Assembly: GCA_002070475.1 (NCBI GenBank)
Contig: MWDI01000026.1
Location: 2,354 to 66,353 of the forward strand
Direction of reading: 5' to 3'
Source of the DNA: Firmicutes bacterium ADurb.Bin146
GTDB lineage: Bacteria; Bacillota; Clostridia; DUPQ01
DNA length: 64,000 nt
Made by a program: the position numbers and the translations under genes. The notes beneath the pieces are model-generated. The model worked only from the letters and a program-made list of their open reading frames with translations, searched no databases and was not told the DNA's origin. Shown one piece after another: positions 11,778-29,353 of this stretch; the first letter of the stretch is position 1; the number at the start of each line of letters is the position of its first letter.

Positions 11778-12496
11778 TGAAACCATTCCCACACATGCCA
11801 GAACTCAAAGGATTTGGCATCAAATGCTGATAAGATATAAGCAGTTATCAAAGCAATAACAAATATGACCAAAGATGCTAAAATAGTAACTCGAAGCGTT
11901 CTTTTCAATTTACCATTAATCTGCAGAAATGTGGCTTTTGCCGGGTATACTGCTTCATTGGATGCTTTTGCCATACAGTTTTTATGAAAACGCGCATATG
12001 AGACTATTAACTGCTTGAACCACATGAATCCATATACTGCCGTTATGAACATGAGGATTGCTAAAGCCAGAAATGCAACTGCAAACAGCACTGCGCTTTT
12101 ATATGGCATGACAGGTATTAATGATGCTATATTCATTTTGGTTATAAGCAGAATTCCTGCTGTTGCAGAAGATACAGCCACTGCCGTTATAACTAGAACG
12201 CCTGCAAACAGAGAAATGAATATGCAAGCAATAAAGATATCAAGAAAAGCCAGTCCTAAACCGGTAAAAAATCTGTTTTTCTTTTTTACGATTTTCTTCG
12301 GCTCGTCCTGTATGAACTGCTTTGCCAGCTCTTTTGGGTCCCCCAGCTTCAAGGATACTTCCTCTTCTGAAAATCCATCAGCCATCTTAAATATAAAATG
12401 TTCTTCATACTCGCTTAATATCTCTTCTATATCGCTCACACCGGCCTGTACAAGACTATTCTTCAGTGTTTCCATAAACTCAATTTTATTCATCAT
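11774..12496 (-). CDS. DUF1700-like membrane protein (PadR-associated)
   Basis: N-terminal soluble helix region MMNKIEFMETLKNSL...EEILSEYEEHF followed by several TM helices; immediately downstream of and overlapping a PadR gene, the usual DUF1700 context. Confidence 0.6.
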   Translation of the reverse strand: MMNKIEFMETLKNSLVQAGVSDIEEILSEYEEHFIFKMADGFSEEEVSLKLGDPKELAKQFIQDEPKKIVKKKNRFFTGLGLAFLDIFIACIFISLFAGVLVITAVAVSSATAGILLITKMNIASLIPVMPYKSAVLFAVAFLALAILMFITAVYGFMWFKQLIVSYARFHKNCMAKASNEAVYPAKATFLQINGKLKRTLRVTILASLVIFVIALITAYILSAFDAKSFEFWHVWEWFQ

Positions 12497-12824
12497 CTGC
12501 CTCCTTAATTAATTCATGCACCGTATCTACAAAGTCCAGCCATTCCTGCCTGTCCTTTAAATATGCTTCTCTTCCCGTCTTTGTAAGCTTGTAGTATTTC
12601 CTGGGCGGTCCTCCACTTTCCTCACAAAGATAAGTAGTCACTAGACCTTCGCTTTTTAATTTTCTTAAAATGGGATAAACAGTTCCGTCAGATATATCTA
12701 TATGTTTGGACAGATATTCAGATATGTCATATCCATATCTATCCGCTTTATACAATAATGAGAATATACACAGTTCTATTACCCCTTTTTTATATTGAAT
12801 ATTCAAAAAACCTACCTCCATCAA
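12486..12824 (-). CDS. PadR-family transcriptional regulator
   Basis: 112 aa, ...ELCIFSLLYKADRYGYDISEYLSK...DGTVYPILRKLKSEGLV...RKYYKLT winged-helix signature. Confidence 0.88.
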   Translation of the reverse strand: MMEVGFLNIQYKKGVIELCIFSLLYKADRYGYDISEYLSKHIDISDGTVYPILRKLKSEGLVTTYLCEESGGPPRKYYKLTKTGREAYLKDRQEWLDFVDTVHELIKEADDE

Positions 12825-12954
12825 TACTATACTTGCTATACTATTGAATAATATATAGTAGTTGGATAAATGTCAATACCTTTTATTAAATATTTAATAT
12901 TGAAGATAATTGATATTTACATTGACTAATTGTTTCTAATAGAAATTATATTAA

Positions 12955-13845
12955 TTATATGCTTAACAGTATTTCCTGCACTGTCTTTATATCCGGTATC
13001 GTTTCTGCTGCGCCATGCTTCGTTACAGTAATAGCTGCAGCCATGCTTGCCATCTTCATGCATTCTTCTATCTTTAAGCCTTTTGCTATCCCTGCAGTAA
13101 AATACCCCATGAATGTATCGCCTGCGGCTGTAGTATCTTTTGCCTCGACCTTATAGCTTTCCTGATAAACAGTTTTCTCTTTATCCTTATATATAGAGCC
13201 GGCAGGACCTAGAGTAAGTACTATCTTTATATCAGGATATTTATAAAGCATGTTTTGCAGTATCATGTCTGGTTCTTTTTCCTTACTTAAAGCTTCACCC
13301 TCAATCTCATTAATAACCAGGTATGTGACTTTGCTCATATCTATATTTAGTAACAAGCTGTCAATAGGTGATGCATTAAAAACAGTCCTCATCTTCATTT
13401 CATGAGCTTTTTCTAATATATATTCTAATTCTGATACCTCATTATTTACCATTAGAATATCCTCTGAATCAAATCTATTTAGAACCTTATTTATATATTC
13501 TTTTGTTATCATCTTATTAGAACCACCATAAACAAGTATGGAATTTCTGCCGTCTTTGTCCACCTGTATAACTGCATGTCCTTGTTCACAATTACAATTA
13601 TCAATCAAAGTTATATCTATATTATTATCATTCAGATATTTTGTTAGAATATTGCCTTCAGATCCTATCATGCCTGCATGGAATGTTTTTTCACCTGCTC
13701 TCGATACCGCGATAGACTGGTTTAATCCTTTGCCTCCGACATTAGTCTCGATTGAAAGAACGTTCAAAGTTTCACCTTCTTTTACTATGTGCTCGACCTT
13801 GTACACATAATCAATATTCATAGAGCCTATATTGAGTATCTTCAT
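12955..13845 (-). CDS. PfkB-family carbohydrate kinase (ribokinase-like)
   Basis: Start at MKILNIGSMNIDYVY (AGGAGG + 7 nt); GGKGLNQSIA and DTTAAGDTF...G motifs typical of ribokinase. Confidence 0.8.
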   Translation of the reverse strand: MKILNIGSMNIDYVYKVEHIVKEGETLNVLSIETNVGGKGLNQSIAVSRAGEKTFHAGMIGSEGNILTKYLNDNNIDITLIDNCNCEQGHAVIQVDKDGRNSILVYGGSNKMITKEYINKVLNRFDSEDILMVNNEVSELEYILEKAHEMKMRTVFNASPIDSLLLNIDMSKVTYLVINEIEGEALSKEKEPDMILQNMLYKYPDIKIVLTLGPAGSIYKDKEKTVYQESYKVEAKDTTAAGDTFMGYFTAGIAKGLKIEECMKMASMAAAITVTKHGAAETIPDIKTVQEILLSI

Positions 13846-13909
13846 ATCAATACCTCCTGTAATATCATCTACTGCTAAATTATATATATGCAAAATAATC
13901 TCAAGCAGC

Positions 13910-15115
13910 TTATTGCTGTTTTATTACTTTGTTTTTTCTGTCAAGTATTAGAAAGAGTATAAATACAATTGGGAAACCTATTGAAGCCAAAAGGCCTGCT
14001 TTCAAGTCATTATTAAAAACAGAAGCAACCTTTCCAGTAACATAAGGCCCGAAGGAACAACCTAAATCACCTGCAAATGCCAGTAATGCGAACATGGCAG
14101 TGCCACCATATCTTATCTGTTTTGATGCTAATGAAAAAGTTCCCGGCCACATTATTCCTACTGAAAAACCACACAGCGCGCATCCAGCAAATCCTACAAT
14201 TGCTGATGTTGAAAGTGAAGCCATCAGATATCCTGCCAAACAAAGAATTCCGCATATTATCATGTATCTGTTAAGATCCCACTTATCACCTTTTTTCGCA
14301 AACAGCACTCTTGAAAAACCCATAAGAATAGCGAATACAAGCGGTCCTGCTAAATCGCCTGCTGTTTTTGACACATTAAGTCCGGATTCAGCAAAAGCAG
14401 AAGCCCACTGGCTCATTGCCTGCTCACTCGCGCCTGCTGTAATCATAAGGATAATAACAAACCAAAATATCCTGTTTTTCAATAAATCTCTAATACTCAA
14501 ATAGCCATTTTCTCCTTTATCCAGTGTATATATGGGAACTTTAAGAAAATATATTGCATTTAAAAGTGGAACCATAGCCCAAAATAGCGAGAGATATTTC
14601 CAGTTTTCAATACCAAAAATCACAAAGAAAAGCGTAGACAATATGACTACCAGCACATGTCCCCAACAATAAAATGAATGAAGCAGGCTCATGACACTTT
14701 CTTTGTTTTTTGTCGGACAAGCTTCTGCGATAGGCGAGATTATTACCTCTGTTATCCCTCCTCCAACAGCATAGACTATTATAGATATGAGTATCCCTAG
14801 GTAATGGTCATTCATCATATCAGGCAGAAACGCTAATAGTATTAATCCTGCAGCAGCAAAAATATGTGCTATTACTGCAGAAGTCCTATAACCTATTTTG
14901 TCTATACATTTCACACCTATTAAGTCAACAGTTATCTGAACCATAAAGTTTACAGATACTAGTAAAGCTATCTTGTCGAGCTGTATGCCATAACTGCTAT
15001 TAAAAGTCAGAAAAAGCAAAGGTGCGAAGTTATTTATTATTGCCTGCACAATGTATCCTATACTGCATGCGTTCAATGTGTGTTTGTGTTTTTTAAAAGG
15101 AGTAATCATAAGCAC
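13910..15115 (-). CDS. MFS transporter
   Basis: 401-aa ORF, ~12 hydrophobic segments in 6+6 layout. Confidence 0.75.
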   Translation of the reverse strand: MLMITPFKKHKHTLNACSIGYIVQAIINNFAPLLFLTFNSSYGIQLDKIALLVSVNFMVQITVDLIGVKCIDKIGYRTSAVIAHIFAAAGLILLAFLPDMMNDHYLGILISIIVYAVGGGITEVIISPIAEACPTKNKESVMSLLHSFYCWGHVLVVILSTLFFVIFGIENWKYLSLFWAMVPLLNAIYFLKVPIYTLDKGENGYLSIRDLLKNRIFWFVIILMITAGASEQAMSQWASAFAESGLNVSKTAGDLAGPLVFAILMGFSRVLFAKKGDKWDLNRYMIICGILCLAGYLMASLSTSAIVGFAGCALCGFSVGIMWPGTFSLASKQIRYGGTAMFALLAFAGDLGCSFGPYVTGKVASVFNNDLKAGLLASIGFPIVFILFLILDRKNKVIKQQ

Positions 15116-15249
15116 CTTAATCAGTAGATATTATTTTGCTATTATACCATTAAAATAAAAATACTCTTTTGAAGAAGATAAAATTTTATCTTTAATTATT
15201 TGTTTTTTATCCGATTTATACATTTTTTAAGTTGAAGCTGTTATAAATT

Positions 15250-16084: not shown

Positions 16085-16630
16085 TTAATGCTTCTTTAAT
16101 ATGTCAGTCTGCTGGTTATCTGGAATAATCCATCCTTTTTTATACAGGATATTCCGTACAGGCCTCAAAACAAAATAAATGATGAGGGTCTCAATTATAA
16201 TTACTGCGGCAGTCTTAATGCTTCTAGCTATAAAAAGCTCGTCGATAGGGATTTTGTATAGTACATATAACGCAATACTCATAAGCAGAAAATCGCTTAC
16301 AAAAGCTTTTGTAAGTACAGTAAATACAGTCCTTCTTGCTGTAATTTCTTTGTTATACAGAAAAAAACCATAAATAAGTCCGTTAGCGACAGCAACTATT
16401 GATATTAAAGGAGAATACGGTCCTGTCGGGAATAGAAAACCACCCAGAATATCTGCAAGAACTGCAGAAAGAGCACCCCATGCTGGCCCAAACAGTATTG
16501 ATCCAAGCGCTATTGATACGAATTCTACCCCTATTCTTACAAACTGCAGGTTAATAGCCAAAAGTTTTGCCAGAATTACCGTTAATGCAGTTAATAAAGA
16601 TAAAATTGCTATTCTCCTTGTGTTATTCAA
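16085..16630 (-). CDS. ECF-transporter S component, folate-family-like
   Basis: 181 aa, 6 TM; RRIAILSLLTALTVILAKLL...RIGVEFVSIALGSILFGPAWGALSAVLADILGGFLF resembles FolT-type S components; 4-nt overlap with the upstream URO-D-like gene. Confidence 0.55.
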   Translation of the reverse strand: MNNTRRIAILSLLTALTVILAKLLAINLQFVRIGVEFVSIALGSILFGPAWGALSAVLADILGGFLFPTGPYSPLISIVAVANGLIYGFFLYNKEITARRTVFTVLTKAFVSDFLLMSIALYVLYKIPIDELFIARSIKTAAVIIIETLIIYFVLRPVRNILYKKGWIIPDNQQTDILKKH

Positions 16631-17625
16631 CGGATAGCCCCTTTTATGCTATACTCTTTAAGAAGAGTAAGATACTTCCAGTAATTTTCCAAAGATACTC
16701 CTGGTGGAGTCTGATGATCTACACTTGGTATATACCCTCCTGATTTCATAGTCGGTAGAAGCCTCTCAAATTCTTCACGCATTGCTTCTTCAGAAACATC
16801 CATAACCATTTTGTCATATGCTCCTATTACAAGGAAATCAGGATAATTCTGTCTTATCCGGTTAACATCCACCCCTGCTTTTCTTTCTAGAGGCAGTGCT
16901 CCTCTAATCCCTGCTCTTTGAAGCCAAGGAATCATGCCTTCAAGCTGTCCGTCAGTATCAACAAGCGGAATAGTACCCAGACTTTCGATGTATGGAACAG
17001 TCTGTTTATAGTAAGGTAGAAGAAACTCATCAAACATATCCTCAGAAAGCATAGGACCAAGATTATATGACATGTCCTCGGCAAAAGTCATAAAATCCGG
17101 ATGTATTGCTTCACTCATCTTCTCAAAAACATATTTAATATAGTGTGTGTTATCTTGGTTCATCCTGTGCATAAGTTCAGGGTTATCATAAAATGCATAA
17201 AGATGGTCCTCTATCCCAAACAGAGTTCTTGGGAACCAGAAGAATCCATCTACAGTTATCCATACTACAAGCTCCCCGTCATCATGCATTTTCTTATATT
17301 TTGCGGCATCTTCAACTGCGGCATCAACCTTGCTCTTATCATAAAGATATGGTTTTAATCTTTCATATGTCTCCATATCAGTTATTTTTCTTTTATCAGC
17401 AGCAAGATTACTGAACTCCCTTGACCTTGATCCGATCCAATACTGTTTAAGCCTGTCTAGACCAAAATATGTATGTTTAATATCTTCTTTGACTGGCAAA
17501 TCAGGAGCTCCTTCGGAAATGAATCTAGCAATGGTCTTGTCCCACCAACCCGCCCATTCAATCATAGGAAGCCTGTCAACCGGTTTAAAATTCATTACAT
17601 TTAGAAATCTTTCTCTTTGGTTCAT
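16627..17625 (-). CDS. Uroporphyrinogen-decarboxylase-family (URO-D fold) protein, paralogue A
   Basis: 332 aa; C-terminal GGYIPSVDHQTPPGVSLENY shared with paralogue B; no haem-pathway neighbours. Confidence 0.65.
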   Translation of the reverse strand: MNQRERFLNVMNFKPVDRLPMIEWAGWWDKTIARFISEGAPDLPVKEDIKHTYFGLDRLKQYWIGSRSREFSNLAADKRKITDMETYERLKPYLYDKSKVDAAVEDAAKYKKMHDDGELVVWITVDGFFWFPRTLFGIEDHLYAFYDNPELMHRMNQDNTHYIKYVFEKMSEAIHPDFMTFAEDMSYNLGPMLSEDMFDEFLLPYYKQTVPYIESLGTIPLVDTDGQLEGMIPWLQRAGIRGALPLERKAGVDVNRIRQNYPDFLVIGAYDKMVMDVSEEAMREEFERLLPTMKSGGYIPSVDHQTPPGVSLENYWKYLTLLKEYSIKGAIR

Positions 17626-17672: not shown

Positions 17673-19601
17673 TCAATTTACTTGTAAAATTTTCTCAAAT
17701 TCCTCATATGGCATAGGTTGATAATAGTAGTAACCCTGCACTATGTCACAATCAAGGGATTTTAAAACATCAACCTGCTCTTTTGACTCAACACCTTCGC
17801 ATATTATCTGCAAATCCATGCTATGCGCAATATCCGCAATACCTTTTATCATTTTTTTCGTCTTGCTGTTTTCCAAGTTATATATCATACTTTTATCAAG
17901 TTTTAGAAAATCCAGCATGAAGTTTGGAAGATCTGCAAATGATGCATAACCTGTACCGAAATCATCCAAAGAAATAGTAAAACCAAGTTCTTTAAGCTTG
18001 TTCACAATCTCGTTCATCATTTTTGCATTTTCTGCTATAAGGCTTTCTGTAACTTCTATATTAAGATAATACGGAGGTACTTCATATTTTGAAGCTATGA
18101 TAAATATCTTGTCACAAAAACTAGTATTGATGAAGTGCGATCTTGCAAAGTTTACTGATACAGGAACTACTTTTTTCCCTTCTTTAAGACTCTGTGAGAT
18201 AAGCTGGCATGCTTTTTCAAACATATACAAGTCAAATGCTATTATAGTGCCGCTTTTTTCAAAAACTGGTATATACTCTCCCGGGCGTATAAGCCCTCGT
18301 CTGGGATTGTACCACCTTGATAATATCTCTCCTCCACAGATACTGTTATCTTCAAGATAGATTTTTGGCTGTATGTATATAAGGAATTCAGCTTTCTGCA
18401 TACTTGATAAAAATTCCTGTTGTAAAAGATTTTCCTCCATAGTCATTATGTGAATAGTCTCATCATAAAACATATATCTTAATTCATCTTTGTCCTTTAT
18501 GAACTGGCGAGCTTGAAGTGATTTCTGCATAAGTATATCCATATTTGTTTCCTCATATTTGGGGGTATATATTCCAATACTGAGAACCACAGGATATTCG
18601 GATTTTTTTATTTCATATTTTTCATTTACCCTGTTTATTACCTGGGTTATTCTAGCTGCCATTTCAGACTTTTCTGTAAACTGGAGTAAAAGTATGAAAT
18701 CATCATTATTCGCTTTTACCAGGATCTCGTTGTTGTATATAAGGTCATCGAGTATGACGGCAATATCAGTCTGGACTTTATCTGCTTCAGGATATCCGAA
18801 AACTTCTCTTATGTAATCCAGATTATTAACGACAAGATTCGCCATACAGTAGGAGCTTATATTCATAGAACTAATGGACACATCGGTAATAGCTTTCATT
18901 CCCTTAATGTTAGGATATCCGGTAAGCCTGTCAGTGTTTAAGAATAAAGTCTTCTGCTTTTTATATCTAGAAAAAGCTATAAGGACAGTAAAAGCAATCA
19001 CTGCAACTATAATAAACGCTGATATTGCTATTACTATATATACTTTGGTATTATCAAACATTTTTTCATACTGCACAGCTTCAGCTGCAATGATGGAGCT
19101 TATCTCTTGCTCAGATATTGTATAAATAGCACGGTCAATCAGTGCTATGACTTCTAATGGCGCTCTTTTTGTATATTGTATAGCTATATTGTGTCCGCTG
19201 AAATTTGCAAGCTGTCGTGATGTTATAAAATCTGTGTTTTGATATACACTTGAAATAGTAATATCTGCTTGAAGATTAGTGCCGTATTGTATAGCTTTTT
19301 CTAAATCTTTTGTCTGTATATACTCGAATTTGAATCCAGTGAGCTCTGATACATGTGAAAGGATCTGTACTATAACGCCTTCATACTTTTTATTGGATGG
19401 GTTATAGAATTCAAAAGGGAAGTTTTTACTGTCTAAAGCAACATAAACAACCGGATAAGAGGACACTACTGTTTTTTCCTCTTCTGTTAATATAAATTCT
19501 TCTTCTAATATAAATTCTTCTTCAGATGCCTTAACATTGCATATTGATAATGCTATTAGAATACAGGATAGTATTATTATGATAACTTTCCTTTTAGCCA
19601 T
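17673..19601 (-). CDS. Membrane sensor c-di-GMP phosphodiesterase: SBP-like ectodomain / TM / degenerate GGDEF / EAL
   Basis: Start at MAKRKVIIIIL (AAGGGAG RBS). EAL motifs EILSR, VSVNFA, IEVTES, DDFGTGYAS, KLDKS, EGVES, QGY all present; GGDEF position reads NDDF. Confidence 0.85.
   Translation of the reverse strand: MAKRKVIIIILSCILIALSICNVKASEEEFILEEEFILTEEEKTVVSSYPVVYVALDSKNFPFEFYNPSNKKYEGVIVQILSHVSELTGFKFEYIQTKDLEKAIQYGTNLQADITISSVYQNTDFITSRQLANFSGHNIAIQYTKRAPLEVIALIDRAIYTISEQEISSIIAAEAVQYEKMFDNTKVYIVIAISAFIIVAVIAFTVLIAFSRYKKQKTLFLNTDRLTGYPNIKGMKAITDVSISSMNISSYCMANLVVNNLDYIREVFGYPEADKVQTDIAVILDDLIYNNEILVKANNDDFILLLQFTEKSEMAARITQVINRVNEKYEIKKSEYPVVLSIGIYTPKYEETNMDILMQKSLQARQFIKDKDELRYMFYDETIHIMTMEENLLQQEFLSSMQKAEFLIYIQPKIYLEDNSICGGEILSRWYNPRRGLIRPGEYIPVFEKSGTIIAFDLYMFEKACQLISQSLKEGKKVVPVSVNFARSHFINTSFCDKIFIIASKYEVPPYYLNIEVTESLIAENAKMMNEIVNKLKELGFTISLDDFGTGYASFADLPNFMLDFLKLDKSMIYNLENSKTKKMIKGIADIAHSMDLQIICEGVESKEQVDVLKSLDCDIVQGYYYYQPMPYEEFEKILQVN
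19488..19523. repeat. Perfect 18-bp tandem duplication inside the phosphodiesterase gene
   Basis: taatataaattcttcttc x2 (19488..19505, 19506..19523), encoding EEEFIL EEEFIL just after the signal anchor. Confidence 0.9.
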
Positions 19602-19602
19602 T

Positions 19603-20046
19603 TCATCTCCCTTGATTAATTTTATATGCCTCATCACAGTCATTCTTTATGCTTTCAGCCTGCTTTATAAATTTTTTAGAAGTTTTTGTCACTGCTTTTT
19701 TAAATTTTTCAAATTCCTCCTTACATTGTTCATACTGTTGTGTCTGTATTTCTTTTTCAGATATTACATCTTTTAATATGTTATCCGCTTGTTTTCTTGC
19801 ATCAGTTATTATTTTATCAGCTGCATTTCTTGCATGTACAAGAGTGTGTACTATTTCATCCTGATTTTTGTTTAGCTGTTCTAGTCTTTTCATAAGAGCA
19901 TTATTCTGCATCAGTATCTCTGTTACCTGCCTATCCTTTTCATGGATATGAGTGTTAAGATCCTCGTTAAGAAGTTCTATGTATTTAATAACATCTTTCT
20001 TGGAATATCCGAATAAGACTTTTTTTAGACCTTTGAATGCAATCAT
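19603..20046 (-). CDS. DivIVA-domain coiled-coil protein
   Basis: 147 aa; N-terminus ...FGYSKKDVIKYIELLNEDL resembles the DivIVA lipid-binding head; rest predicted coiled coil. Confidence 0.55.
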   Translation of the reverse strand: MIAFKGLKKVLFGYSKKDVIKYIELLNEDLNTHIHEKDRQVTEILMQNNALMKRLEQLNKNQDEIVHTLVHARNAADKIITDARKQADNILKDVISEKEIQTQQYEQCKEEFEKFKKAVTKTSKKFIKQAESIKNDCDEAYKINQGR

Positions 20047-20096
20047 ATCAACTCTTCCTCTATTTTATTCTCTTTCATTATATTACATACATTGCT

Positions 20097-21500
20097 TTAC
20101 TGGTTAAGTTTTACCCTCTTTATTTTACCCCATTGTAATTTTTTCTTTTTATAACCTATAAAGGATGTCATTCTAGTGAAAGCCAGTATTATCCTAAATC
20201 CCACATTTTCATATATGCATGCCCATATGGCTTTCCACACATCCTCTTTGGTCAGTCTTATGTTCTGGGTATGTATTCTGGAGAAAAAAGCAGACAGAGT
20301 AATAACCGCTCCGAAAAGTAAAGAAATTACCATATAAGTTAATGCAACTTTGGTTGTTACCATTCCAAGAAGGAACATTGCTATAACTGACAATATTCCA
20401 AAAATCTCTATATATGGCGATAACAGCTCAAAGATAAGGAAATACATATAAGATATAAAGCTCACTGCTCCAAATTTACGGCTAAAAAGCATCTGCTTAT
20501 GCTTGCTCAAACTTTGGAATAATCCTAAATGCCATCTTCGCCTCTGTTTTCGTAAATCTCTCATACTTTCAGGAGCCTGACTCCAGCACACTGCTTCAGT
20601 TTCATATTTTATTGTATATGGAATATTATTTTTCCTACAGAAAACATGCAACCTTACCACAAGTTCCATATCTTCTCCCATAGTTCCATTATCATAACCT
20701 CCGACAGCAATTACAATATCTTTTTTAAATAATCCGAATGCTCCGGATATTATCATGCTTCCGTTAAACATATCGAATAGAATCCTAGACGCTAAAAATG
20801 ATCTTTCGTATTCCAGAACCTGCATAGCAGTGACCATTTTTTTAGGCATGCCATATTTTTTTACTTTCCCATTTTCCAGAATAACTCCGTTAGCTATCCT
20901 GACAAGCCCTCCACAGGCTATAAGATTCTCATCTGTTAGCACCGGTCTTACAATTCTTTCCAGAGCATCTGACTGAAGCATGGAATCAGCATCCATGCAT
21001 ATGAAGTAAGGATATCTGGAAGCATTTATGCCCATATTCAAAGCATCTGCTTTGCCACCATTTTTCTTTCTTATAAGTACAACAGGTACTTTATATGCAT
21101 AACTTTCATAAACGAACTCCTCTTGCTGACATCTTATGCTTTTTTTAATCTTTCTTCTTAACTTTGTCATCTTAAATTCTTCTATTAAAACCTTTGATGT
21201 ATCATCTTTGGATCCGTCATCAACAACTATTATCTCATAGAGCTTGTAATCCAAGTTCAAAAGAGAGTGTACTGTATCACAGATAGTTACTTCTTCGTTA
21301 TAACCGGGGACAATAATAGAAACAGGAAAATAGTATTCATGTGAAATTTCATTATGCAGCCTGCTCATTTGTTGATTTTTATACAGTTCTGAAGCTCCTA
21401 CAGTCACGGATATTACTAAAAAAGTCGCATACACAAGAAGATATAAAGAGTAAAATGCTCCTATTGATATTAGTATGGTCCTAACAACTTCTACAAACAT
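20097..21500 (-). CDS. Processive family-2 glycosyltransferase (PgaC/IcaA/BcsA-like synthase), multi-pass membrane
   Basis: 467 aa; VVDDGSKD, CMDADS, GEDMEL and QRRRWHLG (D,D,D,QxxRW) motifs; TM helices at both ends; no PilZ domain. Confidence 0.85.
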   Translation of the reverse strand: MFVEVVRTILISIGAFYSLYLLVYATFLVISVTVGASELYKNQQMSRLHNEISHEYYFPVSIIVPGYNEEVTICDTVHSLLNLDYKLYEIIVVDDGSKDDTSKVLIEEFKMTKLRRKIKKSIRCQQEEFVYESYAYKVPVVLIRKKNGGKADALNMGINASRYPYFICMDADSMLQSDALERIVRPVLTDENLIACGGLVRIANGVILENGKVKKYGMPKKMVTAMQVLEYERSFLASRILFDMFNGSMIISGAFGLFKKDIVIAVGGYDNGTMGEDMELVVRLHVFCRKNNIPYTIKYETEAVCWSQAPESMRDLRKQRRRWHLGLFQSLSKHKQMLFSRKFGAVSFISYMYFLIFELLSPYIEIFGILSVIAMFLLGMVTTKVALTYMVISLLFGAVITLSAFFSRIHTQNIRLTKEDVWKAIWACIYENVGFRIILAFTRMTSFIGYKKKKLQWGKIKRVKLNQ

Positions 21501-21501
21501 G

Positions 21502-22617
21502 TTATTCTCCCTGGTTAGCTTTCTTTTTCAGTCTAGCAGTCTCTATTTTATACTCCAGTATTTCTCTTGCGTATCTGTCTGCCCCATTGTATATATCAAC
21601 CAGTTCCATATATTCCACATCCAAAGAAACCAGGCTTTCAGAAGCATTGTATCTTATATACCAGTTATTTGATTTTAATGCATCTTTCAAAACATCAATC
21701 ACTTCTTTGCTTTTATATTTTGCTAGAGCTGAAGCTCCAATAGCCTTATATTCCCATTCCAAATTCTCCTGCTTCATAAGTGATACAAGATACTCTCCAG
21801 CCGAAGCATAATAGATTTTTCCGAAATATCGGATTATTGCCAACTTGATTTCTTTATGGGTATATTTATTTTTTAGTAAAGCTAAAAATGGTTCTGCATA
21901 ATCTAAAGTTGAAACCTTTATGAAATTTATTATAGCAATCCTTATATTAATATCAAATCTGTCAAATTCTTTCCATAACAGCGATGCAAGTTTTGCTCTG
22001 TCTCCTTGAAACAACAGTAATCCATCAGATATCAATTTGTTATTGTGCTTTATATTTAACTCCTGCATTCGGAGCATTGCGGTAAGAATAGCTTCACTGT
22101 TGTTAGAAGTGTACAATGCATGAAGAGCATTTTGTCTGACATAAACAGACTTGTTCATTGTGTATGAAATCATGACTGAGACTATGAAGTCATAACTAGC
22201 ATCATCACAAAGCCTGAATTCTGATATAAGAAAAGCAAGATAAGCTTTTTTTGTGTTTTCTTTAGTATCAAATTCGATAAGCACATATTCAAATAGCGGT
22301 TTACATAACTTAAGATATCTAAATGTGTTTTTTTCATTTATTTTAACTTCTTCTTTTATAGCGTCATGAAATGCCTTTAAAACCTTTACCTTTGTTAGTC
22401 TTCTAAATAGATATGACTGTTTATTTTCATCTATCTTGCTGTTTTTTGAAACAAGCAGTACTTGTTCTCTTACTATCTGCCTTATTTTTTCTTTCTTACC
22501 CTTAAAAAGGTAATCCTTGTAACGCAGATATAAAAGATAAGCCGTATTGAATAGAATCATTAATATACATATTATGATGTAGATGATTAATATGAGATCT
22601 ATCCTAATTTCACTCAT
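21502..22617 (-). CDS. Membrane-anchored HEAT-repeat protein
   Basis: 371 aa; N-terminal TM (IDLILIIYIIICILMILF); repeated helical units ending ...NWYIRYNASESLVSL typical of HEAT_2/PBS-lyase repeats. Confidence 0.6.
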   Translation of the reverse strand: MSEIRIDLILIIYIIICILMILFNTAYLLYLRYKDYLFKGKKEKIRQIVREQVLLVSKNSKIDENKQSYLFRRLTKVKVLKAFHDAIKEEVKINEKNTFRYLKLCKPLFEYVLIEFDTKENTKKAYLAFLISEFRLCDDASYDFIVSVMISYTMNKSVYVRQNALHALYTSNNSEAILTAMLRMQELNIKHNNKLISDGLLLFQGDRAKLASLLWKEFDRFDINIRIAIINFIKVSTLDYAEPFLALLKNKYTHKEIKLAIIRYFGKIYYASAGEYLVSLMKQENLEWEYKAIGASALAKYKSKEVIDVLKDALKSNNWYIRYNASESLVSLDVEYMELVDIYNGADRYAREILEYKIETARLKKKANQGE

Positions 22618-24763
22618 TATCTTTAGTCATTCCCTCGCTTGTCCACACTTGCTTTATCATATAGTAGGATTGTTTCAATCTCTCATGATAAGTAACTTTA
22701 TCCCATCCTTTTAATTTGAATGGAGACATTTTTATTATATTCCCTTTGTTTTGATTTGACCCTATCCCTATTCCTATCCCTTTTATATTTATAAATTCCA
22801 CACCATAATTTTCATAATAGTCATCATGAACCTTCATTTTAGACGGATCAGAAAAATTCAATATACTCCAAGGTATCCTCATTTCTATATAATCCTCGTT
22901 TATATAAAAATCTGCTAGAGAATTGTATTCATCATCTTTTGGATTGCTGTTGCCATGTGTAAGTATTCCTGTTTCATATGTCTGGGCCATTAAATCGGGA
23001 TTATTTATCTTTTCTACTGATTCTAGTTGAAGTATAAGGCGTATCTGATTAAAAACAGGACTGTTCTTTTGTGGAGGATTAGAATAGGGGTTCACCCCAT
23101 TTACATACTGATCATATAACGCTTTAAGAGTATCATATCTTTCCTGTACTAGAATCCTTGTTTCTTCCTGTCCATCGATGACTATCAAAAAATCTGCATA
23201 TGCATCAAATCTGACATCATGTTCAGTACTGTAATTACTACCGGTTTTTGGTGTAGTGTCTATGGGTATGTATAGGATATCTGATTTTTCATCATAATTT
23301 TTTTTGTAAACAAGGTAATATATATACTTTTCATCATACTGCATGTATATTTTCATATCACCGTTAATAACAGCAGGGTTTATGTTTTCCCATTCCGTTA
23401 TATCCCCATCAACATGACATAATACATCTTCCTCACCAGGGTCAAATGACAAGATACCGAAACCTTGATCACTTGATTGTGAGTCTGACCAGTATATAAG
23501 TCTTTTTTCATCAACAGCATGCTGGGTGTTCCATGTAGCTTGTGTCCAGTCATCCTGCCATATATACAAAAGGCTTCCTGCACAGTTTACTGATTTTATC
23601 TGTTCATATGTGTCGATAATTATCTTCCCTTGCTCATATTCTGTGTTTCGCCCCTGGTTATACCCTTTATTTGTATCTTCATGTGCCATTCCTCTTGCAG
23701 TAGGTACTCCAAATTCCGTTATTACTATAGGAATACTATGATGAAGTTTGAGCATTTTAAGATATGCGGTGTATGTGTTCACATTTCCTTGATCATCTTT
23801 AAACCAAAATTCTTTATTCTCAAAATAGTTAAGATAACCCGGATAGTACGGATATGCATGATATGATGCGAAATGACCAGAAATAAATGCATCTGTCGTC
23901 TTTATATGTTCAACATCAACCGAAGCGCATTTCTTGAAAAACTCTGTTATATAATCTGGGTATTCAAAAGGATCTGTAGAAGGCCAGTTGAAAAATGATA
24001 TAAGCCTCTGCTCTTTATACCTTTTTGATTCATAATCTATTATAGTATCTCCTATCATGGCAAGGACAGATTCAAATGCTGTCGCTTCTTCTGATGTATA
24101 CATATACTTCCCGCTGTATCCTTCATGAGTATCATGAAGCTTATTAGTATAAGCGATGGTATTGCTGTTCCAGTTGGAACCGAGAATGTATCCGATTACC
24201 CATGGAGAAACGTCTCTAAGATAAAACCCATAACCGCTAGCCTGGTTGAGTACAAGCTGACGGTTTCCGTGAATTATATCAACAAGGATATATGTATTCT
24301 TAATTATTTCTTTATAGAAATCCTCATCCATCGCATTTATATGGCTGTTCTGTACATAATCGGATATTGTCAGACCATGCAGAAGATAAAGAGGATTATC
24401 ATTATCCTTATTATACTGATAAAGAGCATTATAGAAATCTGCATTCATGATTTGATAAACTCTTATTGTATTTGCTCCCATTTCCTGTATCTGCCTGAAC
24501 CATCTAAGAAAATCATATTTTGTAATAGAATAATCAGTTCCGAAGCTGCCAGGTATCGTATTACCAATGTTAACTCCTTTAATCTCAAATCTCTCATATT
24601 TCCCGTTTTTAAGTATATATATGCTTTCATTGTCAGTATTAAATATTGTCATGACTGGAGCATCAGGATTAAAATCAATAAAGAAGCTTGTGAAGAAGAG
24701 TATATAATTTATACCTATTGCAAGACTTATTACTATCACTGTCGCTATAAGAAACTTCTTCAT
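22610..24763 (-). CDS. Membrane-anchored 717-aa protein with clan GH-A-like (beta/alpha)8 region and C-terminal beta-rich domain
   Basis: N-terminal TM; IKGVNIGNTIPG...MGANTIRVYQ and VITEFGVPTARG (TE[FY]G nucleophile-type motif); function unknown. Confidence 0.45.
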   Translation of the reverse strand: MKKFLIATVIVISLAIGINYILFFTSFFIDFNPDAPVMTIFNTDNESIYILKNGKYERFEIKGVNIGNTIPGSFGTDYSITKYDFLRWFRQIQEMGANTIRVYQIMNADFYNALYQYNKDNDNPLYLLHGLTISDYVQNSHINAMDEDFYKEIIKNTYILVDIIHGNRQLVLNQASGYGFYLRDVSPWVIGYILGSNWNSNTIAYTNKLHDTHEGYSGKYMYTSEEATAFESVLAMIGDTIIDYESKRYKEQRLISFFNWPSTDPFEYPDYITEFFKKCASVDVEHIKTTDAFISGHFASYHAYPYYPGYLNYFENKEFWFKDDQGNVNTYTAYLKMLKLHHSIPIVITEFGVPTARGMAHEDTNKGYNQGRNTEYEQGKIIIDTYEQIKSVNCAGSLLYIWQDDWTQATWNTQHAVDEKRLIYWSDSQSSDQGFGILSFDPGEEDVLCHVDGDITEWENINPAVINGDMKIYMQYDEKYIYYLVYKKNYDEKSDILYIPIDTTPKTGSNYSTEHDVRFDAYADFLIVIDGQEETRILVQERYDTLKALYDQYVNGVNPYSNPPQKNSPVFNQIRLILQLESVEKINNPDLMAQTYETGILTHGNSNPKDDEYNSLADFYINEDYIEMRIPWSILNFSDPSKMKVHDDYYENYGVEFINIKGIGIGIGSNQNKGNIIKMSPFKLKGWDKVTYHERLKQSYYMIKQVWTSEGMTKDNE

Positions 24764-24778
24764 CTTCTTATATATCTC

Positions 24779-26191
24779 CTACCTGTTATATGGCTTATTC
24801 CTTGACTCATGAGAAAACTGCATTAACGTATCTATATTCTCATCTATCCATTTACCTCTTGCGATTATGTATTCTTTGAGTTGATTTAATGCAGCTTCAT
24901 AACTCTTAAGATTCCTTTTTGCAGGTTCTAGCATCCCTTTGTCATATACAAAAGTATATCCCCATTTTTCAAAATTCCTTTCAATAGCTGGACCTAAATA
25001 CTTAACAGTCTGGTCAATATATTCAAGTATATATTCCTCACTCAATACAGTCTTTCTTAAATCCTTATATCTTTTAATTACCAGATTTGTGAAGTACTCA
25101 TCCTTCATAAGCATGATGTACCATACTTTGTTCTGAAAGAAGAAACCCGCAGTATTCATAGGTGTTTCAATATAGTTATCATATGCATTGTTGAAATCCC
25201 ATACAGGGCCTATCTCCAACTTTCCCTTTATATCTTTAAATATGTAAGTTGAATAAATACCAGCATCGTAATTTTGAGTGAATTCATTTATTATCAAATA
25301 ATCAACAAAAGACATCACATCAATATATTTTCGATAACCTAATCTTATATCATCATAATCATAGGAATATAATGCTTTCTCGAATTTCGATATATCATCC
25401 TCAATGAAGGTTATAAGCTGCTCATTTAAATATTTTTTTGCAGGATAGATGACATTGCCAATAGATGTCGAATTAAATGTGTATCTTGTAAAAGGATTGA
25501 TTTCCTCTTCCGGATCAGAACCTCTATCCAGTCTTACTATATAGCTTGTAAAAGGATCATTCTCATTATACTTGGCTATGTCCACCCTTCCTTTGGAACG
25601 TGATACTGATTCCATCATCACATATATGCCCATATACTCATCATTTATAAATACTTCACAAAAACGTACATCCGGAGCATTTTTCATCATCTGTCCCGCT
25701 AAGTTCATGCTGATATAGTTCCTTATCAGAGTCTTATCCAGTATAGGTCCGTTAAGGACCCATTCATCATGAGATTCCATTCCCATAATCTTCTTGCTGT
25801 TTTCTGTACGGTCAGTATTAATGAGCTTGATTAGATAGGATTTCTTATCAAAGAAAAGAGAGGAATTACCTCTTGCCCTTATAGTGATAAGGCTATGCAA
25901 ATCCACTTCATCGTCTAAATGGTTATTGGAATCAGATTTATCAAATATGGAAAGGTAGGAATCTATAACCGAGCTTCCATCTACCAATGCAGGTATCTGC
26001 TGATTATGAGTGTCTATTTTTACTAAGGGAAGATGCGTGCAGAATTGTCCGTCTGTGTGGTTGCACTGAACATCCTTAACATCCATGGAATGCTGATGAT
26101 ATCTTTCATATCCATAGTTATAGAAAGTAAGAAAAACAGCTGTAGCTATAAGGAATATGATGGCTATTATACTGATTATCTTCCTATGCAA
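24779..26191 (-). CDS. CotH-family atypical kinase, N-terminally membrane-anchored
   Basis: 470 aa; single TM IISIIAIIFLIATAVFLTFY then CotH-like core (…LIKL…, YIVRLDRG, GPVWDFNNAYDNY). Confidence 0.7.
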   Translation of the reverse strand: MHRKIISIIAIIFLIATAVFLTFYNYGYERYHQHSMDVKDVQCNHTDGQFCTHLPLVKIDTHNQQIPALVDGSSVIDSYLSIFDKSDSNNHLDDEVDLHSLITIRARGNSSLFFDKKSYLIKLINTDRTENSKKIMGMESHDEWVLNGPILDKTLIRNYISMNLAGQMMKNAPDVRFCEVFINDEYMGIYVMMESVSRSKGRVDIAKYNENDPFTSYIVRLDRGSDPEEEINPFTRYTFNSTSIGNVIYPAKKYLNEQLITFIEDDISKFEKALYSYDYDDIRLGYRKYIDVMSFVDYLIINEFTQNYDAGIYSTYIFKDIKGKLEIGPVWDFNNAYDNYIETPMNTAGFFFQNKVWYIMLMKDEYFTNLVIKRYKDLRKTVLSEEYILEYIDQTVKYLGPAIERNFEKWGYTFVYDKGMLEPAKRNLKSYEAALNQLKEYIIARGKWIDENIDTLMQFSHESRNKPYNR

Positions 26192-26201
26192 AGTATCTCC
26201 T

Positions 26202-26879
26202 TTAACTGTTCACTTCATCATTCTGCTCAACAATATTCACATATTCGATGTGTTGAAGTTCATAAAGCCTATCGGTTATGCTTTTTTCATTTACAGCCGC
26301 CTTCCTCATGACTTTTTTTGATACTTCATAAATATATTCAACAGTCAGTTCCGTAGTATTTTTTACCCGAAGATTTGCTTTTGCTGAATAATAGTTGAAT
26401 ATGATTGCTTCAATCTGCCGTTCAGAACCTCTTGCTCCTTTTATTATAACAAGCATTCTATTGTCATTCTTTATTTTTCCAAATGCAAGAAGCAATACGA
26501 AAACAATAGCACTTCCTATCGCTGCTACAAGATAATCTCCTGCTCCGCAGCAAATGCCTGCTATAATCGCCCAGAATATGTATGCTGTATCCCTAGAATC
26601 TTTAATTGCAGTACGGTATCTTACGATGGACAGCGCGCCTACCATACCTAATGATAAAGCTATATTATTTCCTATAACAGTCATTACCATTGTTGTTAAT
26701 AAAGTCAGCATCAATAATGATACATTAAATTTCCTGCTATATATGGTTCCTGAATGGGTATACATATACGACAGGAATATAACTATCCCGATTGCAATAG
26801 CGACAATAAGGTGTGATAGAATCTCCTGTAATGTCAGAGTCTTTCCCTGCTCAAGCAGTTTTAACAAGTACTGTGTCAT
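26202..26879 (-). CDS. DUF4956-family membrane protein
   Basis: Start at MTQYLLK (GAGGAGGG RBS); LGMVGALSIVRYRTAIKDSRDTAYIFWAI motif characteristic of DUF4956; 4-5 TM plus soluble C-terminal domain. Confidence 0.65.
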   Translation of the reverse strand: MTQYLLKLLEQGKTLTLQEILSHLIVAIAIGIVIFLSYMYTHSGTIYSRKFNVSLLMLTLLTTMVMTVIGNNIALSLGMVGALSIVRYRTAIKDSRDTAYIFWAIIAGICCGAGDYLVAAIGSAIVFVLLLAFGKIKNDNRMLVIIKGARGSERQIEAIIFNYYSAKANLRVKNTTELTVEYIYEVSKKVMRKAAVNEKSITDRLYELQHIEYVNIVEQNDEVNS

Positions 26880-26890
26880 AATCCCTCCTC

Positions 26891-27586
26891 TTAAAAAACA
26901 TAGTTCAAACATATAGTGCGGCTTAACGCATATTTGCTTACTGATAATTCGGATTTATCAATCCTATCAAGCATATCCTTTATATACGACAGTAAAAATC
27001 CATTATACTTCACTTCTAAAACAACACTGTCTTGGTGAAAAACCGGGTACATGTTCAGATTTCCAGAAAATATATCGAAACAGCTTTCCGTAGCACGGAT
27101 ATTATGGTCAAATGTCACCCTTATATCATTTTCCTTAGCAATAAATGCTTTCCTGTTGTATTCCACTATTGCTTTAGGCCTGTAGAAACGCATATTCATA
27201 ACAGCATATGCTTCTTTTGCGAAAGGTTCCGAATAATTTAGTAAAGGTGAATAAATCCCTTTTGTTAAGAGTATAGCATCCTCTCTTGACATCTTAAGAG
27301 ATCTTTTAAGCTGTTGGGTACCTTGCTTTTGTTTCATCTCGAGAGATGCGAAATGATTATCGGTTTTGTAAATCCTTAATCTTATTTTCCTTCTTATCTC
27401 AACACCATCTTCTTTTTCATTAAAATCATTATCCGATAAAGTATCAAAATAAAGGGATCTTACAGTATAACCATGCTCGCCATTGTTTACGTCCTGAGCT
27501 AGATAGGCATTAAATGCAGCCGAGTACTTTATGTAATCTGATTTTGTTATTAGATATTTCTTTTCCTGCCTTAAGACCTGTTTCAT
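26891..27586 (-). CDS. VTC-domain (CYTH-like, polyphosphate-polymerase-type) protein
   Basis: 231 aa; N-terminal QEKKYLI..., ...RSLYFDT..., EIRRKIRLRIY, LEMKQK pattern typical of bacterial VTC-domain proteins; no TM. Confidence 0.65.
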   Translation of the reverse strand: MKQVLRQEKKYLITKSDYIKYSAAFNAYLAQDVNNGEHGYTVRSLYFDTLSDNDFNEKEDGVEIRRKIRLRIYKTDNHFASLEMKQKQGTQQLKRSLKMSREDAILLTKGIYSPLLNYSEPFAKEAYAVMNMRFYRPKAIVEYNRKAFIAKENDIRVTFDHNIRATESCFDIFSGNLNMYPVFHQDSVVLEVKYNGFLLSYIKDMLDRIDKSELSVSKYALSRTICLNYVF

Positions 27587-27667
27587 TGCTACCCCTCTAT
27601 GGCAATTAATCAGTTATATTTAAGCCTTTATCTATAATCGTTAATGTTGTAACGCTTTTGGTTGCTT

Positions 27668-28685: not shown

Positions 28686-29282
28686 TCAGTCTCCTTTTTC
28701 TATTTCGCTGGAAAATGTTATTTTTGCCCTTAGAAATCTTTCCAGTTCTCTTTTTCTTTTGAAAGGTTCAAGTATATCGAAGAACAGCATATGTAAAGCT
28801 TCCCACATGAATACCCATCCTCCGATAATTAGGCCTTCAAGCAATACTCTTGGCAGAAGCTGGCCTTGGGCTTTTGCATTAGATAGGATGTATAAAAAGA
28901 TAAATCCCAGTGCTATTATAAACAGTATAATTGAATATCTAGTTATTCTTTTAACTTTTCTATCCTCGAGTTTTTTAAGAGCGTTATAATAATTGCTATA
29001 ACTTGCAATGATAAGTTTTTCTTTCTCCAAATCCGAAGATATATTTTTAATGTGAAAGTTAATATCAAATTGACGGTTCATCGGTATGTCTTCTGAACAG
29101 ATATCTAAAAATTCAGCAAGTCCTGGATTTATATCCCTTTTTCTAAAAGTCGCGTTATCCCATTCATGGAAAAAATCTAGATATTTGTCTAAAGCGATAT
29201 CTATCAGGATATTGTTTGTAACAGGGCTTCTTCTATATAGGCTCAACAATGCCGATTCTTTTGCTTTCTTCTTTTTACCCAT
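28686..29282 (-). CDS. Hypothetical protein with two C-terminal TM helices
   Basis: ORF between murC and GH29 with 4-nt gap to the GH29 gene; start uncertain (29282 MGKKKK or 29342); no family recognised. Confidence 0.4.
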   Translation of the reverse strand: MGKKKKAKESALLSLYRRSPVTNNILIDIALDKYLDFFHEWDNATFRKRDINPGLAEFLDICSEDIPMNRQFDINFHIKNISSDLEKEKLIIASYSNYYNALKKLEDRKVKRITRYSIILFIIALGFIFLYILSNAKAQGQLLPRVLLEGLIIGGWVFMWEALHMLFFDILEPFKRKRELERFLRAKITFSSEIEKGD

Positions 29283-29353
29283 ACCTAGATTATATTCTCT
29301 GGCAAGGAATATAACAACTGTGTTGCGTGACAGTAAACACATATAGAGCTATT

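Follow-up and report, generated by a model that had tools for sequence, protein, structure and literature searches.

An eight-gene cluster in the genome of Firmicutes bacterium ADurb.Bin146 raises the question of why a putative polyphosphate polymerase of the VTC family, a DUF4956 membrane protein and a CotH-family kinase (together, the trio) should lie side by side with a processive family-2 glycosyltransferase (GT2) and a cyclic di-GMP (c-di-GMP) phosphodiesterase (PDE). We analysed the cluster within a 64,000-nucleotide stretch of contig MWDI01000026.1, which we refer to throughout as the window; its sequence is identical to a contig of the metagenome-assembled genome (MAG) GCA_022706905.1 and is also found in JGI and ENA metagenome assemblies. 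In our reading, the locus is one copy of a widespread synthase-dependent exopolysaccharide (EPS) operon of Bacillota, belonging by gene order and protein sizes to the type of NELoc-2 of Clostridium perfringens, and we give the full explanation, which has three layers, a probability of roughly 0.6. The more general statement, that this is an EPS operon in which the trio forms an integrated accessory module under the influence of c-di-GMP, appears highly probable to us.

The cluster comprises eight tightly packed open reading frames (ORFs) on the minus strand, between 27586 and 17673, and their coordinates, their junctions and the range of their spacing (-8 to 50 nt) are as an earlier sequence-only reading of this DNA had described them. 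The protein families named in that reading also stood. Seven of the eight were supported by Pfam, the VTC, DUF4956, CotH and GT2 assignments among them, and the eighth, a 717-aa protein with a clan GH-A barrel, by an AlphaFold2 (AF2) model searched with Foldseek and by a GH157 profile match. From 5' to 3' on the minus strand, the features are as follows:

27587..27667, minus strand: upstream intergenic region of 81 nt with a GAGGGG ribosome-binding site, presumed promoter region (read from the sequence)
26891..27586, minus strand: soluble Vtc4-like VTC/triphosphate-tunnel protein, 231 aa, putative polyphosphate polymerase (Pfam VTC, 3.8e-41)
26202..26879, minus strand: DUF4956/MgtC-like membrane protein, 225 aa, with a C-terminal ACT-like domain; alternative start at 26912 (Pfam DUF4956, 9.7e-14; MgtC, 2.3e-5)
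24779..26191, minus strand: CotH-family kinase, 470 aa, TTG start, N-terminal anchor, predicted to face outward (Pfam CotH, 5.2e-65)
22610..24763, minus strand: 717-aa protein with an N-terminal anchor, a clan GH-A (beta/alpha)8 barrel and a C-terminal beta-sandwich region (AF2/Foldseek)
21502..22617, minus strand: membrane-anchored HEAT-repeat protein, 371 aa, presumed partner of the GT2 (Pfam HEAT_2, 3e-13)
20097..21500, minus strand: multi-pass processive GT2, 467 aa (Pfam Glycos_transf_2, 4.7e-28, and other GT2 families)
19603..20046, minus strand: DivIVA-like coiled-coil protein, 147 aa, optional accessory (Pfam DivIVA, 1.7e-10)
17673..19643, minus strand: sensor c-di-GMP PDE, 642-656 aa depending on whether the start is at 19601 or 19643 (EAL, 8e-59; GGDEF, 2.9e-13)

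Gene order and borders of the probable operon

To place the cluster among its relatives, one genome per species was scanned with the 717-aa protein family, which yielded at least 572 confirmed loci. Synteny was scored in the 80 of these that are most similar to the query, and for each gene only loci with enough flanking sequence were counted. On the same strand and on the expected side of the 717-aa homologue we found CotH in 78/78 loci, DUF4956 in 76/76 and VTC in 73/75, together with HEAT in 77/77, GT2 in 73/74 and a full-length GGDEF-EAL protein in 52/58. The order VTC-DUF4956-CotH-GH-A-HEAT-GT2 on one strand was kept in 73-78 of 74-78 loci. The 80 loci came from Lachnospiraceae, Oscillospiraceae, Christensenellales and many MAGs, with Paenibacillus agaridevorans, Blautia celeris, Anaerotignum lactatifermentans and Zongyangia hominis as named hosts; the same core was also present in a Syntrophomonas MAG and in MAGs labelled 'Bacilli' and 'Tenericutes'. 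Conservation of the gene order in 80 species loci puts the arrangement far beyond chance, and the union of two modules that the sequence-only reading had proposed was borne out by their synteny in related genomes (73/75 to 78/78 species loci).

Recurrent partners were found by clustering all flank ORFs of the surveyed loci. A CE4 polysaccharide deacetylase of ~480-590 aa was inserted in the operon of 13 relatives (L013, L016, L023, L025, L037, L058, L060, L061, L071, L073, L076, L080 and L081) at four different sites, namely 5' of VTC, in the VTC/DUF4956 gap, in the DUF4956/CotH gap and 3' of GT2. These observations bear on the explanation that the trio and the GH-A/HEAT/GT2 module are adjacent by accident and independent in function. 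The parts are indeed separable, as the trio also occurs without the GH-A, HEAT and GT2 genes, but in 73-78 of 75-78 loci from many families it directly precedes the 717-aa gene, in the same orientation. The same arrangement is also found on a plasmid, the gaps measure 10-15 nt, and CE4 genes are interleaved in the trio. Accidental adjacency is effectively refuted by the synteny survey, and the probability we leave to it is negligible.

Within the window, 11 nt separate the VTC and DUF4956 genes (or a 22-nt overlap joins them if the longer DUF4956 start is used), 10 nt separate DUF4956 from CotH, and 15 nt separate CotH from the 717-aa gene. The 717-aa and HEAT genes overlap by 8 nt and the HEAT/GT2 gap is 1 nt. 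Between the GT2 and DivIVA-like genes lies the largest gap of the cluster, at 50 nt, and the DivIVA-like/PDE junction is either a 1-nt gap or, with the longer PDE start, a 41-nt overlap. A simple consensus scan for terminators found no minus-strand hairpin followed by a T-run in any intergenic gap of the cluster, in agreement with the sequence-only reading, which had seen no hairpin plus U-tract between the genes. The only minus-strand terminator-like sites were a weak one within the CotH ORF and one beyond the cluster, and the total of 10 such sites compares with 6.2 +/- 2.5 expected. A promoter scan returned 73 sites against 70 +/- 8.4 expected, which is background, and no convincing site 5' of VTC, while an Rfam scan of the whole window found no c-di-GMP or other riboswitch.

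Both flanking genes are co-directional with the cluster: upstream, at a distance of 81 nt, lies an alpha-L-fucosidase gene, and 47 nt beyond the PDE gene a URO-D-like gene follows. The terminator scan gave no site at either edge, and the limits of the unit therefore rest on comparative synteny and not on transcription signals. Synteny with relatives ends at the 27587..27667 edge, and neither the fucosidase nor the URO-D flank is conserved among relatives, so that the unit spans VTC to the PDE. By its spacing, the terminator scan and comparative synteny, the cluster is likely transcribed as one operon, and the single-unit interpretation of the sequence-only reading holds on these grounds.

The six core genes correspond in order and size to those of NELoc-2, a locus of necrotic-enteritis C. 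perfringens whose gene list has been tied to virulent strains (Lepp et al. 2010, PMC2879425). When the two were compared via the published gene table, gene order, orientation and length (within ~5%) matched. The NELoc-2 products, VTC (230-232 aa), 'tubulin/FtsZ' (222-226 aa), CotH (497 aa), a hypothetical protein (685 aa), HEAT (377 aa) and a GT2 'chitin synthase' (466 aa), have window counterparts of 231, 225, 470, 717, 371 and 467 aa. By size and position, the 'tubulin/FtsZ' protein, a misnomer for a protein assigned to the cytoplasmic membrane, occupies the DUF4956 slot. Unlike the window, NELoc-2 carries the VTC/membrane-protein pair in duplicate around a resolvase as well as a sigma/anti-sigma pair, and its gene list contains neither a DivIVA-like nor a GGDEF-EAL gene. 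A 2024 re-annotation of NELoc-2 (PMC11677781) names polyphosphate polymerase domain proteins, a CotH kinase, a HEAT protein, a glycosyltransferase and a polysaccharide deacetylase; the deacetylase is present in most NELoc-2 copies, as it is in the 13 surveyed relatives of the window. Our literature search found no function assigned to NELoc-2, and one RNA-seq study reported that its first two genes were expressed at a lower level in vivo.

The putative polymer module and the c-di-GMP enzymes

The GT2 displays the features of a processive membrane glycosyltransferase, with DDG, DxD, (T/G)ED and QxxRW motifs and flanking transmembrane (TM) helices. The motifs VVDDGSKD, CMDADS, TMGEDMEL and KQRRRWHLG were invariant in 72/72 homologues, ~2 TM segments are N-terminal and ~3 C-terminal, and BcsA structures matched residues 56-394 (E 5e-6). 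Its best NCBIfam match was PgaC_IcaA (TIGR03937, E 3e-43, nearly full length), although a score far under the family cutoff makes the window protein a relative and not an orthologue. Like the window, pgaABCD/icaADBC systems use a multi-pass processive GT2 with the D, D, D, QxxRW pattern, and CE4 deacetylase partners occur in the window's relatives as they do in the systems that make poly-N-acetylglucosamine. The pga system is also under c-di-GMP control, and PgaB contains a (beta/alpha)8 hydrolase domain. In the window, a HEAT protein stands in place of the small PgaD/IcaD-like partner and the hydrolase is a separate GH-A protein, while pga and ica have nothing equivalent to the phosphate/kinase trio. 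A polymer of N-acetylated sugars gains support from the PgaC_IcaA match of the GT2 and from the CE4 genes of the relatives.

Topology was called from hydrophobicity and from the charge of the residues flanking TM segments. For the HEAT protein, the C-terminal flank of the N-terminal TM segment carries a charge of +3.4 in ~90% of 73 homologues, a pattern opposite to that of the CotH and GH-A proteins, and its repeat domain is predicted to be cytoplasmic. The HEAT gene overlaps or abuts both neighbours, and its product probably partners the GT2.

The 717-aa protein had no Pfam match even at E<=10, and it belongs to a family of 2024 homologue clusters in the database, almost all of ~710 aa and unnamed. 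An AF2 model built with 40 homologues (pLDDT 81, pTM 0.80) consisted of an N-terminal helix, a (beta/alpha)8 barrel at ~60-400 and then the C-terminal beta-sandwich region. Searched against the PDB with Foldseek, the model matched the GH157 endo-beta-1,3-glucanase 9g4n (E 3e-10), and further matches included GH2 glucuronidases, GH5/GH113 mannanases and GH50. A single-sequence PDB search with the protein gave no meaningful match, so that a profile was needed; the sequence profile independently matched GH157 and aligned E350 of the ITEFGVP motif with E224 of LaGH157, the residue mutated in a deposited substrate complex. A GH5-type signature is conserved in the protein (R101, H129, H302, Y304, E350 and W402), and the GH-A nucleophile E350, on strand 7, was kept in 74/74 homologues. 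The anchor has an N-flank of ~+3 and a negative C-flank in 97-100% of homologues, and the catalytic domain is predicted to lie outside the membrane.

The putative acid/base of this enzyme, assigned from the GH5-type residue pattern together with the model, is position 197 after strand 4. It is E (GVEWED) in 71/74 homologues and N (GSNWNS) in the window protein and in the two relatives nearest to it (L005 and L006), and the altered site (24164-24181, minus strand, codons 195-200) has lost three acidic residues. Judged from the alignment and the model, the window lineage has probably lost the normal hydrolytic chemistry of the GH-A protein while the protein itself was kept intact, which suggests that it is hydrolytically impaired or repurposed. 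As a separate observation, a 226-aa antisense ORF (24125-24805, plus strand) lies over the 717-aa/CotH junction; antisense-ORF 'families' of this kind, which recur over the conserved genes in different loci, are best read as coding-strand shadows in AT-rich DNA, not as genes.

Downstream of the GT2, the DivIVA-like protein is soluble and scored 41.4 bits against a Pfam gathering cutoff of 28. A family of ~170-aa DivIVA-like coiled-coil proteins fills the same post-GT2 slot in 35/71 loci, and an HMM of these proteins matched the window protein at 2e-20. The PDE that follows has the domain order signal/TM, SBP_bac_3-like outer domain, TM, degenerate GGDEF and intact EAL, with TM segments at 5-23 and 189-207 and an SBP_bac_3 match (5e-5) below the Pfam cutoff. 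The EAL motifs (EIL..R, N, EVTE, DDFGTG, KLD and EGVE..Q) are complete in the window and kept in 50-56/56 homologues. The GGDEF motif reads NNDDF in the window, departs from GG(D/E)EF and is degenerate family-wide.

In 24 of the surveyed loci, the gene directly before VTC encodes a diguanylate cyclase with an intact GGDEF; dCache-GAF-GGDEF proteins were found in 11 and response-regulator HD-GYP (RR-HD-GYP) proteins in 10. The c-di-GMP connection drawn in the sequence-only reading gains support from this neighbour-gene survey, through the conserved intact EAL, the upstream cyclases and the HD-GYP proteins. A comparable operon under c-di-GMP control is ydaJKLMN of the Gram-positive Bacillus subtilis, which encodes a GT2 synthase, a glycoside hydrolase and large membrane proteins. 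It differs in having the degenerate-GGDEF receptor YdaK and in having neither the trio nor a HEAT protein.

The VTC-DUF4956-CotH trio

A profile of 20 bacterial VTC-family sequences matched the catalytic domain of yeast Vtc4 (3G3Q, E=6e-13), whereas a single-sequence PDB search with the window protein gave no meaningful match, so that here too a profile was needed. Vtc4 K200, R264, R266, K281, K294 and the YNR motif correspond to K10, R69, R71, K85, K94 and Y143/R145 of the window, all invariant in the 20 sequences; we transferred the Vtc4 numbering from the native-numbered 8I6V match onto the printed alignment. These are tunnel residues, reportedly the catalytic ones of Vtc4 (Hothorn et al. 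2009). R156, E191 (LEVK) and K218 (SKY) are also invariant and may be the equivalents of Vtc4 R373, E426 and K458, in a region where the alignment is non-significant or not shown. The window protein has no TM segment and no SPX domain. It thus shares with the yeast VTC complex (3G3Q, 8I6V and 7YTJ) the tunnel domain and the invariant equivalents of its catalytic residues, and differs in being a bare tunnel domain of ~230 aa, where yeast has an SPX domain and a fused transmembrane channel.

An AF2 model of the DUF4956 protein, built from an alignment of database homologues (pLDDT 74), showed 4-5 helices and a beta-alpha-beta-beta-alpha-beta domain. Its best Foldseek match was weak, to the MgtC C-terminal domain 2LQJ (E 5e-3), a likeness to MgtC/ACT that agrees with the published description of the Streptococcus intermedius homologue. 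We considered DUF4956 as a channel like that of yeast VTC, a role that structure does not support, as the Foldseek matches were weak ones to MgtC/ACT domains; the protein is MgtC-like and has no detectable similarity to the yeast VTC channel subunits.

The CotH protein aligned to Bacillus cereus CotH (5JD9). The Asp residues of its QNYD and WD motifs are 23 residues apart, the same spacing as in the Bacillus enzyme, and correspond to the catalytic D228 and the metal-binding D251 of B. subtilis CotH, either of which inactivates the kinase when mutated. The D228 equivalent was conserved in 77/78 homologues and the D251 equivalent in 78/78. The N-terminal anchor has an N-flank of +3 and a negative C-flank in 97% of 78 homologues, which predicts that the kinase domain lies outside the membrane. 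With their catalytic residues conserved, the VTC, CotH, GT2 and EAL enzymes all look active. No CotB/CotG-like substrate genes are conserved near the window CotH or in the flanks of relatives, and clustering of the flank ORFs gave no conserved candidate in the operon for a Ser-rich kinase substrate.

CotH is best known as a spore-coat kinase and many hosts of the locus are spore-forming Clostridia, and the polysaccharide of B. subtilis ydaJKLMN ends up on spores. These facts would fit a spore-surface system in which CotH acts as it does in Bacillus spore coats and the polymer decorates spores. Unlike the Bacillus enzyme, however, the window CotH is membrane-anchored, with its kinase domain predicted outside, and belongs to a family found in polysaccharide loci and in non-sporulating taxa. 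The core also occurs in Planococcus and in 'Bacilli' and 'Tenericutes' MAGs, the trio occurs in non-sporulating streptococci and bifidobacteria, and the regulatory genes at the locus encode c-di-GMP enzymes, not visibly sporulation-linked functions. A role in sporulation therefore appears highly improbable.

We additionally searched a plasmid collection with the VTC protein and obtained four records, each of which carries all three trio genes. The Planococcus maritimus plasmid has the same six-gene core as the window. In Pseudobutyrivibrio xylanivorans pNP95 (L086, 1-20663), CotH-VTC-DUF4956 is embedded in a polysaccharide cluster of another kind, which encodes glycosyltransferases (GT2, GT4 and GT61), acyltransferases, pyruvyl transferases and a GH99-like protein. 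On the Enterococcus faecalis plasmid LR962858 (L088, ~8572-15116), an amidase gene is followed by VTC and DUF4956, then by a two-component system (response regulator and histidine kinase) that splits the trio, and finally by CotH, with no glycosyltransferase or synthase near the trio, and in the actinomycete Nonomuraea gerenzanensis VTC-DUF4956-CotH lies a few kb from a GT2. From the four plasmid records and the literature, the trio appears to be an autonomous, portable module that is usually but not always found in polysaccharide loci, and the operon type as a whole is probably mobile. A very large protein of the 'phosphodiester glycosidase family' is encoded close to the trio on pNP95, which hints at phosphodiester-linked glycans there.

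The trio has been described before in Gram-positive pel operons, where cotH, a poly-phosphate polymerase gene, DUF4956 and DUF4832 are contiguous with the operon; bifidobacteria have a DGC/PDE gene (diguanylate cyclase/phosphodiesterase) instead of DUF4832, and a regulatory role for the kinase was suggested (Whitfield et al. 2020, PMC7112168). The Pel loci resemble the window in having the trio and a glycoside hydrolase beside a synthase-dependent EPS operon, and the contiguous CotH, VTC-type polymerase and DUF4956 that mark the Pel accessory genes are all present here. The Pel-locus CotH is predicted to be secreted, and the Pel-locus DUF4956 has been described as MgtC-like with an ACT domain. 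The synthase machinery is different, being PelF (GT4), PelG, PelD, PelE and PelA in one case and a PgaC-like GT2 with a HEAT protein in the other, and a Pfam search found no pelF, pelG, pelD, pelE or pelA-like genes in or beside the window cluster. The hydrolases differ likewise, as the Pel protein is a DUF4832 protein, an active hydrolase in S. intermedius (PMC12345266), and that of the window a GH-A barrel with no Pfam family. The 2025 S. intermedius study also stated that the three-gene synteny of the trio is not found outside Pel loci (PMC12345266), a claim that our survey and the plasmid records contradict. Also unsupported is the view of the sequence-only reading, which knew of no system that combines the trio with a synthase-dependent EPS module bringing a c-di-GMP enzyme of its own. 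NELoc-2 (PMC2879425) and the Pel loci (PMC7112168, PMC12345266) precede it, and its claim of novelty was overstated, since both the locus type and the association of trio, EPS and c-di-GMP are already in print.

The main rival explanation sees the trio as a regulatory protein-kinase module and not as one that modifies the polymer. CotH would then phosphorylate the GH-A protein, synthase parts or wall and matrix proteins and so tune output, while the VTC product would remain cytoplasmic, where it would either buffer phosphate or energy or act as a signal that the DUF4956 ACT domain senses. The CotH enzymes characterised so far are without exception Ser/Thr protein kinases, and a regulatory role is what Whitfield et al. 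proposed (PMC7112168). In S. intermedius, CotH and DUF4956 mutants shift the amount of Pel in opposite directions and the authors suggest that polyphosphate may remain cytoplasmic (PMC12345266), and on the E. faecalis plasmid the trio stands beside a two-component system without any synthase. However, the kinase domain is predicted to lie outside in 97% of homologues, away from the cytoplasmic synthase domains. The recurrence of the trio in polysaccharide clusters of unrelated chemistry and the CE4 genes within it suggest a glycan or surface target, and the operon offers no conserved Ser-rich substrate candidate. A regulatory module is in our estimation a real possibility, though on balance somewhat unlikely.

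Pel becomes cationic after deacetylation, and yeast VTC couples polyphosphate synthesis to membrane translocation. A further explanation is that VTC and DUF4956 make and export polyphosphate as a matrix polyanion, which would hold together an aminosugar polymer made cationic by partial deacetylation, much the role that extracellular DNA plays for Pel. The trio does accompany Pel, in relatives of the window CE4 deacetylases go with a PgaC-like synthase, VTC keeps its Vtc4-type catalytic residues, and the VTC complex of yeast reportedly delivers its polyphosphate into vacuoles. Such a matrix role would leave CotH, which is as conserved as VTC, without a function, and DUF4956 has no channel-like structural match. 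In addition, the window operon lacks a deacetylase, and deletion of the VTC homologue in S. intermedius had no aggregation phenotype (PMC12345266). We consider secreted matrix polyphosphate distinctly unlikely.

A model for the operon, its surroundings and its significance

Our preferred explanation, an EPS operon with the trio as an accessory module, can be set out in three layers and their regulation. In the first, the PgaC/IcaA-like GT2 and its cytoplasmic HEAT partner would polymerise and extrude a polysaccharide, most likely one containing N-acetylhexosamine. In the second, the anchored GH-A protein would bind, trim or transglycosylate the emerging chain outside the cell; in the window lineage, where the presumed acid/base Glu is lost, it may act mainly as a binder or scaffold. 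In the third, the Vtc4-like tunnel enzyme and its MgtC-like membrane partner would handle the supply of polyphosphate or phosphate at the membrane, and the outward-facing CotH would phosphorylate an extracytoplasmic target, for which we prefer the nascent polymer, with matrix or wall proteins as the alternative. That the secreted polymer is indeed the kinase substrate is, taken by itself, doubtful. As for regulation, the EAL phosphodiesterase would lower local c-di-GMP when its SBP-like sensor meets an external ligand and so turn the system off, and the diguanylate cyclase found upstream in relatives would provide the 'on' input. The analysis establishes the gene structure, the domain identities, the conservation of catalytic residues, the predicted topology and the synteny between species; from these we infer the nature of the polymer, the chemistry of the trio, the identity of the c-di-GMP receptor, the HEAT-GT2 partnership and transcription as an operon.

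Several results weigh against this explanation. The GT2 scored 148.3 bits, under the PgaC_IcaA equivalog cutoff of 422.3, and the window operon is without a deacetylase gene, which together make an N-acetylated polymer less certain. The 80 surveyed loci are the most query-like of at least 572, and more distant members may differ. Consensus scans identified neither a promoter nor a terminator at the cluster edges, and a search of the operon for PilZ, MshEN and I-site GGDEF found no c-di-GMP receptor domain. A role in polyphosphate export is without structural support, as the DUF4956 model is unlike the VTC membrane channel, and an extracellular kinase has no obvious supply of ATP. In S. intermedius, deletion of the CotH or the DUF4956 homologue halved aggregation in sputum medium, yet the two mutants shifted Pel levels in opposite directions and deletion of the VTC homologue gave no aggregation phenotype (PMC12345266), a pattern that a regulatory role fits at least as well as polymer modification.

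One speculative extension addresses the supply of phosphate to the kinase. VTC and DUF4956 could form a bacterial counterpart of the eukaryotic VTC machine that makes polyphosphate at the membrane and passes it, or phosphoryl groups from it, outside, and CotH could use these, in place of ATP, to phosphorylate or polyphosphorylate secreted polysaccharides. Polyphosphate as the donor for an ATP-starved ecto-kinase would explain why the trio genes travel together, although we consider this proposal unlikely.

Elsewhere in the window, three URO-D-family paralogues (16627-17625, 40203-41369 and 43114-44160) lie among genes for a GH29 fucosidase, a GH39-like protein, a GH51-like arabinofuranosidase, a GH28 protein, mannitol dehydrogenase and an ECF-type S component. 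A 1983-aa ORF (34069-40020, minus strand) has a counterpart on the identical contigs with cadherin-like, Big_9/Big_12/Big_13 and SLH domains, which makes its product a giant S-layer-anchored surface protein. Between a Mur-ligase-family gene and the fucosidase gene lies a 218-aa ORF (28686-29342, minus strand) with no Pfam match, for which the identical contigs likewise carry a gene call. At ~41-45 kb, GC skew changes sign together with the orientation of the genes. A replication origin near 43 kb was considered and rejected, as the genes there encode glycoside hydrolases and URO-D-like proteins and not dnaA, which points to a local strand change.

Taken together, our results place the locus in a family represented in at least 572 species genomes, from Bacillota of the gut, the rumen and digesters, a type that also marks virulent lineages of C. 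perfringens. It joins a bacterial Vtc4-like polymerase outside PPK1/PPK2, an outward-facing CotH in settings unrelated to spores, and a c-di-GMP-linked synthase with a HEAT partner. Its remaining interest lies in the breadth of the family, in a trio that is not specific to Pel, in the lineage-specific loss of the GH-A acid/base and in the joint biochemistry of the Vtc4-like and CotH enzymes. That the trio is not restricted to Pel widens a question already raised by the Pel field, and cultured carriers for experiments include Paenibacillus agaridevorans, Blautia celeris, Anaerotignum lactatifermentans, Zongyangia hominis, Planococcus (on a plasmid) and C. perfringens. Should a secreted glycan turn out to be phosphorylated by the trio, a new means by which Gram-positive bacteria charge their matrix would come to light, and a CotH fed by polyphosphate, if real, would make the trio a portable 'glycan phosphorylation cassette' for Pel, PgaC-like and Wzy-type pathways.

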